Assembly: GCA_965198235.1 (NCBI GenBank)
Contig: OZ240248.1
Span: forward strand, 2,080,001 to 2,144,000
Direction: 5' to 3'
Source: Candidatus Poribacteria bacterium
Lineage (GTDB): Bacteria; Poribacteria; WGA-4E; WGA-3G
DNA length: 64,000 bases
Positions 23,904 to 29,163 of this stretch are shown piece by piece. The first letter of the stretch is position 1; each line of letters opens with the position of its first letter. The translations under genes were made by a program, and so were the position numbers. The notes beneath the pieces were generated by a model. The model saw only the letters and a program-made list of their open reading frames with translations. It had not been told where the DNA came from and made no database searches.

Positions 23904-24131
23904 TCAGAAGTGTTTTGAACGTCTGGCTCGGACCCTAAAGTTGCGTTCGCCCTTGTAACCGAGTATCTGCAGGACTTCGTCCCACAATTCCTTTTCAGCC
24001 CAGCGGTGGATATTGCGTTCGGTTGTGTTGAGTTTCGTCGCGATTTCTTTTGCGTCGCGGGTATGTGTCGCAAAAAGACCTGCTGCAACGGTGATGCGGA
24101 TGTCTGTTTCGACTTTACTACGTTTGGGCAT
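23904..24131 (-). CDS. Small HTH DNA-binding protein
   Basis: AKEIATKLNTTERNIHRWA resembles a helix-turn-helix. Confidence 0.6.
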   Translation of the reverse strand: MPKRSKVETDIRITVAAGLFATHTRDAKEIATKLNTTERNIHRWAEKELWDEVLQILGYKGERNFRVRARRSKHF

Positions 24132-24472
24132 AGATTATTTCCAATCTTGAAAGTGTAGAATGTATCCTGAGACCGTTAATATTAAAGGTGAGTTCAATAT
24201 CAGGAATAGGCATGTGTCAAAAGGAGAACCCCTTGATTTTTGCTGTCCGCTATAAAAGGATTTTTTATGAAAGTTTTCCTTAAAAATGTTACACTGGTGT
24301 AACATTTAGTGTACAGTGAATATCGGCGGAAAACCCAGTGAATATCAGGGGCCATAGGCTTTTCTTTTTTGGTTTTCCGCGGTGAAAAAAATAATTTAGC
24401 GGAAAGTGTAACATTTTGGATGTTGTGAATCTCACAAAGGTAAAATTTTATCCTTATTCCCAGTATAGTATA

Positions 24473-24501
24473 ATTATATCATGTTTTCGCGCGGGTGTCA
24501 A
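24473..24501 (-). promoter_or_regulatory. Consensus sigma70 promoter pointing away from tnpB element 1
   Basis: TTGACA-17 nt-TATAAT on the minus strand. Confidence 0.65.
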
Positions 24502-24601
24502 TTTCTTTTACGATGTTCACGGACTTTCATCCCAATCCTTCAGGTTTGGGATGAAAGTCCGCCCTCGTGAATAAGACCGAGGCGTTGTTTAAAAAATAAG
24601 C

Positions 24602-24630
24602 GTGACTTTGCTATTAAAATGTGTTATAAT
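24602..24630 (+). promoter_or_regulatory. tnpB E1 promoter
   Basis: GTGACT-17-TATAAT with extended TG; same layout in E2. Confidence 0.7.
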
Positions 24631-24634
24631 TAAT

Positions 24635-24718
24635 GTATCACGTTGGCAGACATTCATAGCATAATCGCAAGGTTATGTGTCTGCCTACCCACTCTGAAGG
24701 GGTTAAAAAGCGCGATAC
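24635..24718 (+). ncRNA. Structured 5' leader RNA of tnpB (E1)
   Basis: Nested stems, a GCAA tetraloop and a possible pseudoknot; conserved with compensatory changes in E2. Confidence 0.65.
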
Positions 24719-24728
24719 GTGAACTCCA

Positions 24729-25838
24729 GTGAAAACAGAGAGATATGAGTTATATCACCAGTCACATACGATCGTTATCGGCAATCTGTTAGCCGATATG
24801 CACCAAGTGCATGTCCACCTCCTAACGTTGCAGCGAAGGTATTTCCGTATCTACGGTAAATATGCGTCTTTTGAACGGATATGCAAACATATCACGAAGT
24901 TAAAACAACGGACAAAACCGCATTGGAAACAACTTCCAAGTCAAGCGATCCAAGACGTTGCGAAGCGTATTGATTTAGGATACCAGCGTTTCTTTGATAA
25001 TATCGAAGATCGTCAGTCTGGTAAAACGACACGACGAGTGGGTAAACCGCATATCAAACCGCAGCATAAATACACCTCTATAACATTGAAACAAGCGGGC
25101 TATAAGATTGAAGGCAATCGTATCTATATCGGCTGTCTAAAAAAGTCGTTCACCTTTTGGAAACACCGTGACTTTACTGGCACGGTCAAGAGAGTCACAA
25201 TCAAACGTGATAATGTCGGTGCTTATTATTTAACAATCGTCTGTGAGGATTCTGAACCTACTGAAGCCCTCCGACTGACAGGTAATGTAGCAGGGGCGGA
25301 CTTCGGTATGAAGACGTTTTTGACCCTTTCAGACGGTATCAAGATAGAATCCCCCGAGTTCTATAAGCAAAGCCTGAATGAAATCCGTTCAGCAAATAAA
25401 GCACTCTCACGAAAGCAATATCTCTCTAATGGTTGGTATCGTGCGAAACGCCACCTCGCACGTGTCTATAAGAAGATCGGCAATAGAAGGCGAGACTGGT
25501 TCTTCAAGTTGGCCCTGCGTCTTCTGCGAAAGTATGATACGCTTGCGATTGAAACCCTGAACCTTGATGGCATGAAACGCCTGTGGGGTCGGAAAGTCTC
25601 TGATCTCGCCTTCGGTGAGTTTGCTCTCATACTTCAGTGGATATGTGCGAAATACGGTAAAACATTGGCAAAAGCAGGACAGTGGCAACCGACGACAAAA
25701 GCCTGTAACGTCTGTGAGCATAAGAATGAGACGCTCACACTTGCGGACAGAGACTGGACATGTCCGAAATGCAGCACCTCTCACGATAGAGATATAAATG
25801 CTGCGAAAAACATTTTGCGGGTAGGGGTAGCGGTCTAA
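24729..25838 (+). CDS. tnpB: RNA-guided endonuclease TnpB
   Basis: RuvC I ADFGMK, RuvC II IETLNL, zinc finger CNVC/CPKC, RuvC III HDRDINAAKNI. Confidence 0.95.
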   Translation: MKTERYELYHQSHTIVIGNLLADMHQVHVHLLTLQRRYFRIYGKYASFERICKHITKLKQRTKPHWKQLPSQAIQDVAKRIDLGYQRFFDNIEDRQSGKTTRRVGKPHIKPQHKYTSITLKQAGYKIEGNRIYIGCLKKSFTFWKHRDFTGTVKRVTIKRDNVGAYYLTIVCEDSEPTEALRLTGNVAGADFGMKTFLTLSDGIKIESPEFYKQSLNEIRSANKALSRKQYLSNGWYRAKRHLARVYKKIGNRRRDWFFKLALRLLRKYDTLAIETLNLDGMKRLWGRKVSDLAFGEFALILQWICAKYGKTLAKAGQWQPTTKACNVCEHKNETLTLADRDWTCPKCSTSHDRDINAAKNILRVGVAV

Positions 25839-25990
25839 CGAGACCATAAAACCGATCTGATTCGGAATAAATCCCCGCAGGTGGAGCGACAATAAGACGT
25901 TTGACCCTTTGGGAAAAACGCAGTTGCTATGAAACCGAAGCCCAACCCTTTAGGTTTGGGTGCTATCACAATCAGAAACTCGGTTTCGAG
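25815..25990 (+). ncRNA. Putative omegaRNA of E1 (scaffold to 25969, guide AATCAGAAACTCGGTTTC...)
   Basis: Overlaps the tnpB 3' end and right end, as established for TnpB elements; boundaries approximate. Confidence 0.55.
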
Positions 25991-26287
25991 ACAGATCTCC
26001 TCATCCCGGAAGAAGATCCATTTTTTGGGATCGTGAGTCGTGATGATGTCCGGATTCTGCTCAAACATATCACCGAGGATGTCCATCCAGTTCCAAACCA
26101 CACCCGACACGAGTGGGCGAGATGGGACGCTTTCATACTGGTTTCTGATCCTGACGCGTTGTTTGCTGAGTTCCAGTCCCGTGGCTTAGAGTTCCACGAA
26201 ACCCTCGCAGACACCGACGACGGTCTCCGTGCTTTTGAACTCAAGGACCATGATGGGTATGTTTTGTGTTTTGGGAAACCGCTTTGA
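25970..26287 (+). pseudogene. VOC/glyoxalase-bleomycin resistance gene lacking its N-terminus
   Basis: NQKLGFETD...GLRAFELKDHDGYVLCFG starts exactly at the E1 right end. Confidence 0.8.
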
Positions 26288-26461
26288 ACGGAGAATCGTC
26301 TGAATCAGGATTTACGAGATTTTAAGATTGCCAGGATAAGCGCGGCACGCTGCATTGAAATCCTACGCCACACCTCGCCTTGTAAAAATGTAAAGGATAC
26401 AAAATTAGAATTCATCTGTTATTTCTTTTTAAGCTAAATCTAATAAGCGGCGGCAACATTG

Positions 26462-26701
26462 TTAAGAAGCTCCGGCACGGTGAGACGGTACATCAATAAC
26501 AATTTCGTTTTGAAGCGCGCGTACGGCGTAGGCGAGTACCGCCCGAATGCTTTTCTCACTTAGATCCGGGTAATCTGCAATGATCTCCTGATTTGACATA
26601 CCGCTTGCTAATAATCCCAATATATGTTCAACACTCAGACGAGTGCCTTCAACAACTGGCTTTCCACCAAGGATTTCTGGATCCGCAATAATTCTAACCA
26701 C
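26462..26701 (-). CDS. DUF433 domain protein (putative antitoxin)
   Basis: RIIADPEILGGKPVVEGTRLSV...DYPDL; GTG start after GAGAGG. Confidence 0.88.
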   Translation of the reverse strand: MVRIIADPEILGGKPVVEGTRLSVEHILGLLASGMSNQEIIADYPDLSEKSIRAVLAYAVRALQNEIVIDVPSHRAGAS

Positions 26702-26874
26702 AATTTTTACCTCTCTATTGGAAAATACGTTAACCTTATCTAACCTTCCGAGACTAAAACCCAATCCTTTAGGTTTGGGATACAGTCTGTCCCTTGTGAA
26801 TGAGACCGTGGGTCTCTGTTGAAAAAAGACTTTCGGAAAGCACCCCACACAGTGACTGTGTCGGGTGACTTTCC

Positions 26875-26903
26875 GTGACTTTTAGCCAAAAATGTGGTAT
26901 AAT
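26875..26903 (+). promoter_or_regulatory. tnpB E2 promoter
   Basis: GTGACT-17-TATAAT with extended TG. Confidence 0.7.
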
Positions 26904-26910
26904 TAAGAGT

Positions 26911-26990
26911 ATCACAGTGGCAGACAGTTCAAGCGTAATCGCAAGGTTACGTGTCTGCCTACCCACTTGAACGGGGTAAAACTCTGTGAT
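26911..26990 (+). ncRNA. Structured 5' leader RNA of tnpB (E2)
   Basis: Homologue of 24635-24718 with covarying stems. Confidence 0.65.
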
Positions 26991-27002
26991 CTGTGAGATA
27001 CC

Positions 27003-28217
27003 CTGCGAAACACAAAACACAAACTTTTCAAGGATAAGACGTTGCGTCACCTGCACGACGAGTGCAATATCTCTGGCGTTGTCAAGAATCACTTCCTTGC
27101 GCTGTCTATGCGATATTACCGCCGCTATGGGAAAGGCGTGTCGTATTCCAAAATGTCGAAGCATTTGACGAAACTGAAGCGTCTTGAAAAATACCAGCAT
27201 TGGAATATTCCCTACTCATGGGCGTTGCAAAATGTTCTCAAGCGTCTGGAAACCCAGAGTTTCAAAGAAATAAAAACGCTCGGTAGAGGTCACCCGAAAT
27301 TCAAGTCCTGTCAGAAACACAAAGGGATGACGTTTCGCGGTGAACAGGTCAAAATAGAAAAAGTGCTGGACGCGCAAAAACACGAGAGGAACCACCCGAC
27401 GTATAAAATCCGACTCAACGGTCGTTGGTATCGGTTTGCTCTGCACCGTGAAATCAAAGGCATCATCATTGAAGTTCATGTAACGAGGGACGCACTCGGA
27501 GATATGTATATCACCCTGACAGAAGACTATACCGAAATTAAAATTGAACCCAAGACGGGTCAAGCTGAAGGGTTTGATTTTGGTATTAAAGACTTCTTGA
27601 TCGGCAGTGATGGTCATAGATATATGTCTCCGATGTTCTACAAACAGAATGCTGAAAAGTTGGCGACAGCACAAAAGGCGTATTCTCGCAAGGTCAAAGG
27701 TTCTCAGAATCTCGAACGCGAACGCAAGAACGTTGCACGTATCCATAAGAAGGCTGCGAATCAGAGAGCAGACCACCATTGGAAACTTGCGATAGAACTT
27801 TGTCGTCAGTTTGACATCCTGTTCTTTGAAGATTTGAACCTTCGCGGCATGAAAGCACTCTTTGGCAAACAGGTATCTGACCTTGGTTTTGGTGAGTTCT
27901 ATCAGAAACTCAAACACCAGAGTCACAAGCGTATCCGCTCTGTGCTGAAAATCAATCGGTGGTCTCCCACCACAAAGTGCTGTTGTGTGTGTGGAGATAA
28001 AAATGAAAATCTCACGCTATCAGATCGTCACTGGACGTGTCCAAGTTGTCATACACACCTGGACCGCGACGAGAACGCTGCTATGAACATTCTTAAGGAA
28101 GGGATAGCTTCCTTTGGGTTAGGAGTTGTAAGACCTATTGTTTTGTTTAACAAGATCGTAGGCACCTCCGTTGAATCTAACCATCCGATTCTGAATTCCA
28201 CAAATGCTTCTGCTTAA
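27003..28217 (+). CDS. tnpB: RNA-guided endonuclease TnpB (probable CTG start at 27003; ORF track starts at TTG 27042)
   Basis: GFDFGIK, FFEDLNL, CCVC/CPSC and DRDENAAMNI all intact. Confidence 0.95.
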   Translation: MRNTKHKLFKDKTLRHLHDECNISGVVKNHFLALSMRYYRRYGKGVSYSKMSKHLTKLKRLEKYQHWNIPYSWALQNVLKRLETQSFKEIKTLGRGHPKFKSCQKHKGMTFRGEQVKIEKVLDAQKHERNHPTYKIRLNGRWYRFALHREIKGIIIEVHVTRDALGDMYITLTEDYTEIKIEPKTGQAEGFDFGIKDFLIGSDGHRYMSPMFYKQNAEKLATAQKAYSRKVKGSQNLERERKNVARIHKKAANQRADHHWKLAIELCRQFDILFFEDLNLRGMKALFGKQVSDLGFGEFYQKLKHQSHKRIRSVLKINRWSPTTKCCCVCGDKNENLTLSDRHWTCPSCHTHLDRDENAAMNILKEGIASFGLGVVRPIVLFNKIVGTSVESNHPILNSTNASA

Positions 28218-28277
28218 TGATTGCAGAAGCCCAAGTCTTTAGACTTGGGTCTATCACAAGCCACTGTGCGGCACTTT
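28098..28277 (+). ncRNA. Putative omegaRNA of E2 (guide AAGCCACTGTGCGGCAC...)
   Basis: GGGATAGC...GTAAGAC-hairpin...GTTGA...right-end hairpin; boundaries approximate. Confidence 0.55.
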
Positions 28278-28428
28278 CTGGGTAAGGTATCGCATCAATA
28301 AATTCTTGGGCGAAAGGTTGTGTCGATGCAAGTAACGCACGCTTTGGGAGACCGTGTGTTAAGACGGGTGGTCCAAAAGGCATGAACGTTGACAATATAT
28401 TCTGTGGCGTTTGCATTCCAGTTGACAT
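28258..28428 (-). pseudogene. Small ORF interrupted by E2 (continues at 26739-26707); possibly a degenerate antitoxin
   Basis: Frame is restored when E2 is removed; lies right after the HigB fragment. Confidence 0.4.
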
Positions 28429-28434
28429 TGTTTG

Positions 28435-28536
28435 TTACCTTTGTTCCATCAATTCAAGCCAACGGAAAAGTCCTGATCTGGAGGTTGGATGTCTTTGGGC
28501 AAATTCAGTGAGTTTTTGTTCTGCAATAATTTGCAT
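28435..28536 (-). pseudogene. Truncated HigB-like toxin (33 aa)
   Basis: MQIIAEQKLTEFAQRHPTSRSGLFRWLELMEQR* resembles HigB N-termini. Confidence 0.65.
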
Positions 28537-29163
28537 CAATAAGTTGTCTCAAATTGGAAAATGACGACCCAGCTGAACTTGAACGTTCCGATAGGAATGT
28601 TATCGTGTACGACCCTAAGATTCCACTTTCTGTCCTGTTAGGTACGGTGAAATTATACACTGACTCGCAACGGATTGCAAGAGAAAAGGAGTGTCAAGGA
28701 ACCAATCCTAAAAGATAAGAGCATTTAGTTTCAAAAATACCGATACTATAAGTTAAATATAATTTCACATTCGTTTTTTCACGGAGAAGGGGTATGTTGA
28801 ATCCTGGGAACCCACGGCCCACCTACGACGATAAAAACCTCCGTGAAGCCTCCGTGAAAATCAGAGTATTCCTACCTTACGAATTCTAACAAACGCCGAT
28901 ACAAACGTAACAACAATTAGAGTAGATTTTAGAATGACTTCGGCACGGTAAAGAAGCGAGGTGTTTTTGATAGGGGGACTTCGCTTGGGATTTTGATTGG
29001 GTATTTCTGCGGATTTCCGATAGGTGTCAATTTTATAAAAAACTGCATCGTAGGTTGGGTTGAACGGGGACTACCAAACCGATGCCGATTCACTGAAAAA
29101 TCGCCTCGTTTCCATACTCGCGTCCCGACTGACTGCCGACTGCTGATTGCTGACGGCTTATAA

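Follow-up and report, generated by a model that had tools for sequence, protein, structure and literature searches.

The window analyzed here comprises 64,000 nucleotides from the genome of a Candidatus Poribacteria bacterium (contig OZ240248.1 of assembly GCA_965198235.1, positions 2,080,001 to 2,144,000 of the forward strand). It contains two tnpB-only elements of the IS200/IS605 type, and this work concerns a structured RNA, referred to below as the leader, that is predicted at the 5' end of their tnpB transcripts. Cas12 is descended from TnpB, itself a compact nuclease for genome editing. The omegaRNA of TnpB elements consists of the 3' end of tnpB and the right end (RE) of the element, with a guide taken from the flanking DNA. 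A transcript of such an element gives one omegaRNA but could yield many proteins; how the two are balanced is poorly understood, and the leader family, which belongs to sponge-symbiont Poribacteria, is positioned where this balance could be set. We give about even chances to the reading that the leader is a cis-acting, pseudoknotted 5' RNA, which caps the transcript and gates translation of tnpB through two alternative registers of its closing helix.

RESULTS

Two tnpB-only elements carry the same leader between promoter and start codon

Both elements, E1 (~24510-25969) and E2 (26741-28257), lie on the + strand and have a common layout, consisting of a left end (LE) hairpin, a sigma-70-like promoter, the leader motif, the tnpB open reading frame (ORF), and an RE hairpin ending in TATCAC (Table 1). 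A preliminary description of this DNA had reported a motif shared by the two divergent tnpB elements, and what it said of the sequence proved accurate position by position. Its impression was that the motif is more conserved than the tnpB coding DNA; the motifs are 87% identical over 88 nt, compared with 40% (144/356) for the TnpB proteins. A 31-nt core common to E1 and E2 occurs twice in the window, against 0.00 occurrences expected. As that description also had it, the motif directly follows the promoter and is separate from the omegaRNA at the 3' end; the fold is located inside the LE, between promoter and start codon.

Because positions 27003-27005 of E2 read CTG, where a twin copy elsewhere in the genome has an ATG start, and because A is found at 27003 in all contigs from four RNA-library runs, the E2 copy has probably lost its tnpB start codon, with the leader intact.

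Table 1. Positions of the parts of E1 and E2 in the window, and of type-4 mini-elements elsewhere in the same genome (G000)
Feature	Position	Strand	Basis or remark
E1 LE subterminal hairpin	24521-24560	+	Perfect inverted repeat; like hairpin upstream of other copies
E1 promoter, GTGACT / 17-nt spacer / TG-extended TATAAT	24602-24630	+	Promoter scan, 10/12 matches with TG
E1 -10 box TATAAT	24625-24630	+	Promoter scan
E1 leader core	24635-24718	+	R1 covariance model match, 97.4 bits
E1 P1 5' strand GTATCACGTT	24635-24644	+	Sequence
E1 P2, GGCAGACA paired with TGTCTGCC	24645-24652 with 24678-24685	+	Sequence
E1 pseudoknot, bulge TTCATAG with loop CTCTGAA	24653-24659 with 24692-24698	+	6/7 positions pair
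E1 P3 hairpin CATAATC-GCAA-GGTTATG	24660-24677	+	Sequence
E1 P4, CCC with GGGG run	24688-24690 with 24699-24702	+	Sequence
E1 P1 3' strand GCGCGATAC	24710-24718	+	Sequence
E1 second copy of P1 3' strand CGTGAAC (24718-24724), then TCCA to start codon	24718-24728	+	Sequence
E1 tnpB, 369 aa, GTG start at 24729	24729-25838	+	ORF list; Pfam OrfB_IS605 and Cas12f1-like_TNB
E1 3' untranslated end with RE hairpin, element terminus ...TATCAC at 25969	25839-25969	+	Sequence, copy comparison; expected omegaRNA region, by analogy with established TnpB biology
E2 putative element start, after TTATC	26741	+	Comparison of copies
E2 LE hairpin	26760-26779	+	Sequence
E2 promoter, GTGACT / 17-nt spacer / TG-extended TATAAT	26875-26903	+	Promoter scan
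E2 leader core	26910-26990	+	R1 covariance model match, 96.2 bits
E2 P2	26919-26926 with 26952-26959	+	Sequence
E2 pseudoknot, bulge GTTCAAG with loop CTTGAAC	26927-26933 with 26966-26972	+	7/7 pair
E2 P3	26934-26951	+	Sequence
E2 P1 3' strand	26984-26990	+	Sequence
E2 second P1 copy CTGTGAG, then ATACC, then CTG in place of the start codon	26991-27005	+	Sequence
E2 tnpB ORF from first listed start	27042-28217	+	Homology to intact copies begins at 27003; Pfam OrfB_IS605 and Cas12f1-like_TNB
E2 3' end with RE hairpin, element terminus ...TATCAC at 28257	28218-28257	+	Sequence
Type-4 mini-element (L180), G000:C1	~3783540-3784050
Type-4 mini-element (L181), G000:C1	~858000-858450
Type-4 mini-element (L182), G000:C1	~537300-537450

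The leader is a three-way junction with a covarying pseudoknot

BLAST with the E1 motif as query detected 22 copies in the genome, and 25 were matched by a covariance model (R1) built from 19 distinct own-genome copies. A broader model (R2) was derived from 29 leaders of four sequence types, described below. The fold is a three-way junction closed by helix P1. One arm consists of P2 and P3 and contains a 7-nt bulge, with which the loop of hairpin P4 pairs. From 5' to 3', the parts follow each other as P1 5' strand (a), P2 5' strand (8 nt), 7-nt bulge, P3 hairpin (7 bp, with a mostly GCAA loop), P2 3' strand, 1-2 unpaired nucleotides, P4 (3-4 bp with a 7-nt loop), junction strand, and P1 3' strand (a'1). 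All pairings listed in the preliminary description are present in the two elements, among them the outer stem and the kissing contact between loop and bulge, and the latter has changed on both sides across the family. E2 pairs in full at the pseudoknot, whereas E1 has a single mismatch in each of P1 and the pseudoknot.

In a MAFFT alignment of the 19 distinct own-genome copies, 97.1% of the paired cells are able to pair, versus 84.8% after shuffling (a value of this size was reached in 0/500 shuffles) and 25-43% in slid controls, and six of the seven pairs of the bulge-loop helix have changed on both sides. The alignment of the 29 leaders of four types gave 95.9%, versus 64.7% after shuffling (0/500) and 32-43% in slid controls. 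Double-sided changes are found here in 29 of 33 pairs (P1 8/8, P2 6/8, pseudoknot 7/7, P3 5/7, P4 3/3), and the crossing pairs that make up the pseudoknot are paired in 98.5% of cells, so that the covarying pseudoknotted structure suspected from two copies is substantiated in a family. Since P1, the pseudoknot, and P3 were part of the model to which this alignment had been fitted, the counts for these helices lean toward the structure; the support for P2 and P4 is independent because neither was in that model. Copies are related within and between genomes, and the shuffle statistics therefore overstate independence. As judged from the sequences, the independent support is the number of distinct compensated variants together with the four sequence types.

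A census by regular expression of 104 distinct type-1 copies revealed 39 different bulge 7-mers, which pair with the loop of their own copy at 7/7 positions in 97 copies, at 6/7 in 4, and at 4 or fewer in 3. A structure-only scan yielded 63 distinct bulge strands among 166 distinct matches, 3-4 of them apparently false. A control with reversed sequences, in which 34 matches were obtained, was set aside as invalid, since hairpins survive reversal. The same scan provided compensated P2 variants, namely GGCAAGCA/TGCTTGCC, GGCAGATA/TATCTGCC, GGCAGGCA/TGCCTGCC, AACCAGCA/TGCTGGTT, GTGGGAGA/TCTCCCAC, GGTAGAGA/TCTCTACC, and GGACAAYG/TGTTGTCC. Both scans covered the genome itself and the loci of relatives retrieved for this analysis.

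G.U cells outnumber A.C cells (51 versus 16; 20 versus 4 in the MAFFT alignment), which argues that the folding strand is the sense strand. Of seven own-genome copies folded with RNAfold, six returned these nested helices; P1 is broken by its own mismatch in c01 (E1) and is shorter 5' in c04 and c13. Pairings of the variable 7-mers or P1 with the element ends, the target site, or the omegaRNA were looked for by eye. A match of the E1 bulge to GCTATGAA in the E1 omegaRNA region was rejected, as other copies do not keep it.

The fold is phased to the promoter

A -10 hexamer (at least 5/6 matches) that ends 14-15 nt before P2, and hence 3-4 nt before the P1 5' strand, is present in 82 of 103 copies, and 76 of 103 copies have a -35 hexamer (at least 5/6) located 16-18 nt upstream of the -10 hexamer. 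Because of this phasing, the transcript is predicted to start within P1. In a 5'-terminal mRNA stabilizer of the ompA or aprE type, the very first nucleotides of the transcript are held in a helix without 5' overhang; the +1 predicted within P1 in the same 82/103 copies might be of this kind. The fold is promoter-proximal in every leader type. In a consensus scan, no minus-strand promoter was called within either leader of the window, and the nearest minus-strand sites lie outside the leaders. Four metatranscriptome runs contained 39-56% of the words of window positions 24300-28700, with both elements covered by contigs; the ends of RNA-library contigs at 24664 and 25969 are repeat boundaries.

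This placement also bears on whether the folded molecule is RNA at all. IS200/IS605 elements move as top-strand single-stranded DNA, which has the sequence of the mRNA, and a G.T bias cannot separate a single-stranded DNA structure used in transposition from a folded transcript. However, the leader is located 75-115 nt inside the LE hairpin, it is phased to promoter and start codon, and tnpA-tnpB elements with like end hairpins do without it. A DNA structure is in our view extremely improbable.

As a separate observation on the E2 promoter, a 44-nt palindromic insertion at 26832-26875 interrupts the -35 region and restores the GTGACT hexamer. It is absent from the twin copy of E2, and one RNA-library contig joins 26831 to 26876. 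Copies c03, c13, and c21 carry longer palindromic insertions at the equivalent site.

A second copy of the P1 strand takes the place of a Shine-Dalgarno sequence

The distance between fold and start codon is nearly fixed. The start codon (ATG in 92, GTG in 7, and TTG in 4 of 103 copies) follows the GGGG run at a distance of 25 nt in 78 of these copies and of 24-28 nt in 97. In coding elements it lies ~11 nt downstream of P1, and these 11 nt are made up of a second copy of the P1 3' strand (a'2) and a pyrimidine-rich 'YCC'. None of 97 type-1 leaders has a Shine-Dalgarno (SD) core at -20 to -5, compared with 51% of host starts, taken from 2,251 crudely called gene starts, and 14% in the background. 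Conversely, CC occupies -2,-1 in 69/97 leaders versus 4% of host starts.

At least two sites complementary to the 5' strand are present in 129/131 type-1 and 15/15 type-2 leaders, with a spacing of 7 nt in 120 cases of type 1 and of 8 nt in 13 cases of type 2. The 5' strand pairs at 7/8 positions or more with copy 1 (register P1a) in 61 of 78 leaders and with copy 2 (register P1b) in 57 of 78, and pairing with copy 2 averages 6.92 pairs, versus 5.98 +/- 0.09 with shuffled partners. Where the copies differ at position 6, the mismatch falls in copy 1 in 15 cases and in copy 2 in 13. Both registers covary with the 5' strand and the two pairings are mutually exclusive, as in the expression platform of a riboswitch. 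Forcing the J4/1-copy-1 region to be unpaired raised the minimum free energy by 1.1-7.7 kcal/mol in 10 of 22 own-genome copies folded, and in three of these ten the unconstrained fold was already on copy 2. The registers thus show three-way covariation and lie close to each other in energy. A pairing of YCC with the G run of P4 is compatible with the data, which do not discriminate for or against it.

The leader might also act as a bacterial device resembling an internal ribosome entry site. In that case, the fold would recruit the 30S subunit and position it on the SD-less start, with the P1b helix, formed by the 5' end of the mRNA and copy 2 at -12 to -5, replacing the duplex of SD and anti-SD. 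We regard this as unlikely.

The fold recurs in four sequence types, one of them in elements without an ORF

Type 2, from genus g6 of another family, differs wholly from type 1 in its P1 and P2 sequences and keeps both the strand duplication (e.g., GAAAGACA GAAAGACA) and a CCC or UCC before the AUG. Type 3 (P2 GGTAGAGA) is represented by one copy in the genome under study (44 bits with R1, filters off) and by several in genus g9. It is without a second P1 copy, and at that position GGAG, GAGGA, or AAGGA occurs in 4 of 6 true cases; the AUG follows 10-11 nt after P1. The segment that would be buried in register P1b (-12 to -5) is the site of this type-3 SD. Of the functions listed in the preliminary description, a translational control or initiation element appears to fit best, given the fixed distance to the AUG, the missing SD (0/97), and the duplicated P1 strand at the type-3 SD site.

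Type 4 is built in the same way, and its P2, pseudoknot, P3, and P4 are rich in compensatory changes. Three copies were found in the genome by the structure-only scan (Table 1), and BLAST at E up to 0.001 gave matches in 20 out of 41 genomes from the genus, counting G000; some of the weakest matches span only the 3' flank of the query. Each of the ~0.5-kb elements carrying type 4 runs from LE, promoter, and leader through an extra hairpin, formed by a'2 and a sense copy of a located downstream, a second covarying domain (X), and a U-rich tract to an omegaRNA-like 3' end and RE. No TnpB was detected by tblastn within 1.5 kb of the type-4 leaders at any of 17 loci. The fold is therefore more than a tnpB translation device, since a variant is kept in ORF-less mini-elements, and this takes it beyond the frame of the preliminary description. 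What all four types share, to judge from the sequences, is that a compact fold starts at the +1 predicted for a strong promoter and that the element has lost tnpA.

Domain X has a covarying closing helix (GGUAGCAG/CUGCUACC or GGGCAG/CUGCCC) and an inner GGUGAAAUCC hairpin; it had no Rfam match and no similarity to tnpB coding DNA. Terminator/antiterminator logic was considered for the type-4 transcripts, and folding gave none that was clear.

The ORF-less elements raise the question of whether the leader is an autonomous RNA module of the TnpB/omegaRNA system, which would help to make or load the omegaRNA or act in trans as a stable small RNA (sRNA). Its helices still compensate where tnpB is missing (17/17), the promoter is strong, and the copy number is high. 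There is also a precedent in IS200, in which, as outlined in a preprint, a 5' piece of the transcript can persist as 5'tnpA sRNA (bioRxiv 10.1101/2024.06.26.600842). Yet the fixed AUG spacing in coding elements would be needless for a free-standing RNA, and the leader has no conserved single-stranded seed, the exposed second copy varying among copies. In addition, tnpA-tnpB elements of the same TnpB subfamily work without the fold, and the leader type is uncoupled from the omegaRNA type. An autonomous module thus seems to us an unlikely explanation, albeit one to be kept in mind.

Unpaired nucleotides and junctions vary among the leader types

Within type 1, the junction bases UA, A74, and UUAAAGA are conserved. 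Together with two mutually exclusive P1 registers that adjoin the start codon and with an architecture like that of junction riboswitches, which likewise combine a closing P1 with a loop-loop contact, this would suit a riboswitch in which the junction binds a small molecule or ion stabilizing P1a and the duplicated strand serves as expression platform. However, the junction strands of the four types (UUAAAGA, CAU, none, and UAUAAA) vary in sequence and, from 0 to 7 nt, in length, and no unpaired nucleotide is common to all four. Because of this variation, and with no Rfam match and no metabolic gene linked to the fold, we consider a riboswitch improbable.

For the same reason, the leader is hardly a self-cleaving ribozyme that processes the 5' end or detaches itself from the mRNA, although the preliminary description had counted a ribozyme among the candidate functions. 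In favor of a ribozyme, the fold is compact and pseudoknotted and is carried by a mobile element, and its tandem repeat is a possible site of cleavage or docking. A generic catalytic core, though, is not recognizable, in that none of the nucleotides lying outside the helices is shared by all four types; no ribozyme family was matched at E up to 10; and the predicted transcription start is already at the 5' edge of the fold. A ribozyme is accordingly a very improbable assignment.

The leader is missing from tnpA-tnpB elements and uncoupled from TnpB lineage

The genome encodes 35 matches to the TnpB TNB domain and 6 to the Y1 transposase. Three tnpB genes are located downstream of tnpA, and all of them are without the leader fold. 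The 5' untranslated region (UTR) of the tnpA gene at 119838 is short and contains an SD-like AAAGG and no leader fold; the upstream regions of the other two tnpA genes likewise have no such fold. At the two tnpA/tnpB junctions that were read, the start codon of tnpB either overlaps the stop codon of tnpA (ATGA) or directly adjoins it (TAAATG). In autonomous elements, tnpB appears to be translated via coupling to tnpA, and loss of tnpA leaves the SD-less tnpB AUG on its own. Two further tnpB genes were noted: a tnpB-only copy of the 403-aa subfamily without the promoter-leader cassette, and a tnpB of another family (413 aa) with an unrelated leader and a normal SD (G000:C1 ~4994960 and ~161100).

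The absence of the fold where tnpA is translated first, and its presence in SD-less and ORF-less elements, could also be signs of a processive antitermination element that modifies RNA polymerase, similar to put of phage HK022 or EAR of Bacillus, and ensures read-through to the distal omegaRNA. The promoter-proximal position in every type would agree with this, as would the helix and U-rich tract that separate the type-4 leader from the omegaRNA part and the restriction to Poribacteria among the samples searched (see below), as might be expected of an element specific for the RNA polymerase of its host. This argument is a purely positional one. Antitermination would leave the fixed AUG spacing and the duplicated strand unexplained, and different P2 and junction sequences coexist in one genome. 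It appears quite improbable to us.

The 63 full-length TnpBs found behind type-1 leaders form 8 clusters at 60% identity, with 26-54% identity between clusters. By inspection, type-4 leaders are paired with two different omegaRNA/RE types, and the leader type is uncoupled from the omegaRNA type. These observations run counter to the TnpB-bound autoregulatory site envisaged in the preliminary description, an operator at which TnpB alone or with omegaRNA would bind the fold and repress its own translation. Autogenous control via mRNA structures is common, the fold abuts the start codon, and its GNRA loop and conserved P2 are possible protein contacts. An operator is disfavored because the leader type follows neither TnpB nor omegaRNA lineage, with leaders of the one type 1 preceding all 8 TnpB clusters. 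Moreover, ORF-less elements retain the fold, and inspection by eye found no resemblance to the elements' own omegaRNA ends. We therefore hold out little hope for a TnpB operator.

The leader family occurs in two sampled families of Poribacteria

Among 60 relatives, R1 gave 1-49 matches in every one of the 36 genomes of the same genus; of the 24 genomes that belong to other families of the order, it matched one. R2, for which at most 28 candidates per genome were scored, had matches in 108 of the 151 genomes in a sample of the phylum, which by its record titles is Poribacteria (own genome G000 included), amounting to ~1,370 matches of four sequence types. G000 aside, 89 of 99 genomes of family f1 were matched, comprising 56/56 in genus g1, 31/38 in g9, 1/2 in g10, 1/1 in g11, and 0/2 in g12. 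In family f3, 18 of 26 genomes were matched, all of them in genus g6 (18/20), and the seven other families had no match in 25 genomes. R2 found no match in 151 genomes of another phylum (seed record titled as a Chloroflexota metagenome-assembled genome).

A sequence-pattern scan of one genome per GTDB species detected at least 108 stretches. Among the 80 listed, 78 belong to Candidatus or uncultured Poribacteria; the two outsiders among the matches listed (Pseudomonas and Chloroflexota) were not matched by the model and are attributed to chance. The sequence-pattern scan had no matches in viral contigs, and a pattern excluding type 1 gave two stretches in metagenome contigs, neither of which is a model match. 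Sequence patterns are blind to sequence-divergent relatives, and coverage outside Poribacteria consisted of such patterns or of the one other phylum. Among the collections and two phylum samples searched, the leader RNA is found in Poribacteria only, in two of nine sampled families.

That the motif corresponds to no named family, as the preliminary description had it, agrees with covariance scans against Rfam 15, which gave no match on any leader. In window positions 24000-29000, the leader had no match at E up to 10, ribozyme families included, and the whole window had nothing at the gathering score. At 20 further loci, searched at E up to 0.1, the only matches were to tRNA, tmRNA, and, below threshold, Plastid-ycf2 on a tRNA; five mini-element loci had no matches at E up to 1. 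The comparison covered IS605-orfB-I/II, HEARO, twister, hammerhead, pistol, hatchet, and HDV-like families, to none of which the leader could be assigned. In the literature on TnpB and Poribacteria, no description of a 5' tnpB leader fold was found at the level of abstracts. The leader RNA may have been listed previously as an orphan motif: a 'Poribacteria-1' motif, possibly the same RNA, is reportedly part of a 2017 list of 224 candidate RNAs. If Rfam contains that motif, it gave no match here. The main text of PMC5737381, the paper to which the list reportedly belongs, makes no mention of Poribacteria or IS605.

DISCUSSION

A proposed 5' cap and gate with two registers

With respect to the favored reading of the leader as a cis-acting RNA that caps the transcript and gates tnpB translation, we propose the following mechanism. 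By pairing the 5'-terminal nucleotides, the fold would shield a poorly translated or untranslated transcript from 5'-end-dependent decay, with the consequence that the whole transcript, distal omegaRNA included, might be made and kept. This protective role is suggested by the position of the fold, by its presence in ORF-less elements, and by the RNases of the host, in whose genome RNase J was matched with 505 bits, which is above the cut-off, and RNase E/G with 347 bits.

The gate would operate through the duplicated strand, since the 5' strand may pair with either of its two partner copies. In register P1a, the 11 nt upstream of the AUG would be single-stranded, allowing the ribosome to load. 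In register P1b, positions -12 to -5 would be buried, possibly in a helix extended by YCC with the G run of P4, and the ribosome would be excluded. This effect of the register on ribosome loading is proposed by analogy with the 5'UTR stem of IS200. The balance between P1a and P1b would result in a low, tunable yield of TnpB per transcript and might be shifted by folding kinetics, a host factor, or temperature. By our own reasoning, a low yield of TnpB would suit an element that gives one omegaRNA per transcript.

Several points weigh against this reading. Both P1 registers lie, to judge from the sequence, inside the 30S footprint, and P1a need not be the true ON state. Pairing between YCC and the G run is weak, given that the base at -3 after GGGG-U is A in 48 cases, compared with 11 for U, 6 for C, and 1 for G. 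The model does not account for the near invariance of P2 within type 1 (120/131), and since a plain hairpin at the 5' end would already protect the transcript, the elaborate pseudoknot stays unaccounted for. Because type-4 leaders keep the fold in 17/17 TnpB-less loci, translation control is not the whole function, and the reading would have to lean on a second role in stability. Finally, the RNA-library contigs show neither starts, ends, strand, nor level of the transcripts, and DNA carry-over into them is possible.

Comparison with known leaders

A feature of the leader that appears to be unusual is the duplicated P1 strand, for which we know of no counterpart in translational leaders. In the E. 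coli rpsA leader and the T4 gene 32 operator, structured SD-less or pseudoknotted leaders are bound by their own protein products. The poribacterial leader would resemble them in that a fold a few nucleotides upstream of an SD-less start decides ribosome loading; protein binding is a feature of those two. Purine-class riboswitches, which are three-way junctions too, resemble the leader in that an alternative pairing competes with the 3' strand of a closing P1 and a tertiary contact between loops joins two arms. In the leader, by contrast, this contact is a 7-bp Watson-Crick helix between loop and bulge, and the junction nucleotides are not conserved across types.

The omegaRNA, or reRNA, is a noncoding structure of the same elements and the same transcript. 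The leader (24635-24718) differs from it in its 5' position inside the LE, wholly within the element and without a flank-derived part, and hence is not an omegaRNA. Other RNAs of TnpB elements included in the comparison were the sotRNAs of IS1341-type tnpB (PMC4615843) and IS605-orfB-I of Rfam (RF03065; PMC11701678).

The closest likeness is to the tnpA 5'UTR of IS200 from Salmonella and E. coli, which belongs to the same insertion sequence superfamily and also places a structured RNA at the 5' end of the transcript. There, the structure hides the SD, and mutations in the lower stem cause a 20-fold rise of the toeprint and a 50-fold rise of expression (PMC4513863). IS200 employs a plain stem-loop over a real SD before tnpA, in addition to the antisense RNA art200, whereas the poribacterial leader is a three-way junction with a 7-bp pseudoknot before tnpB, with a duplicated partner strand and no SD. 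No sequence or covariance-model relation between the two was found. The segment that would be sequestered is a copy of the P1 strand, with an SD in 0/97 type-1 leaders, and the consensus scan for promoters gave no sign of an antisense RNA starting within either leader. By analogy, the leader would work most like the translational leaders of IS200-type transposase mRNAs, without their architecture, SD, or antisense RNA. We would thus group it with the cis-acting leaders of transposase messages, although this leaves its additional presence in elements without an ORF unexplained.

If the leader does promote SD-independent initiation, it would represent a new principle of bacterial translation. 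If it only stabilizes or represses, it would add a new and elaborate representative to the transposase leaders already known as a class. In either case the design is unusual, with a self-complementary strand duplicated in the place of the SD. That tnpA-less and even ORF-less derivatives carry their own cassette of promoter and leader bears on the persistence of nonautonomous TnpB/omegaRNA elements.

Neighboring features

Just outside the left end of E1 and directed away from it, a sigma-70 promoter with 12/12 matches and TG (TTGACA, 17-nt spacer, TATAAT) is located on the minus strand at 24501-24473. An ORF with a partial match to the glyoxalase family (25901-26287, + strand) is entered by the right end of E1, and a DUF433 ORF (26462-26848, - strand) overlaps the left end of E2. 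E1 and E2 may have inserted into or beside these ORFs. Three leader-bearing elements of this genome (L011:98-171; L013:14-87 and 2003-2076; L022:2837-3095) are situated within approximately 1.5 kb of tRNA genes or the tmRNA gene.

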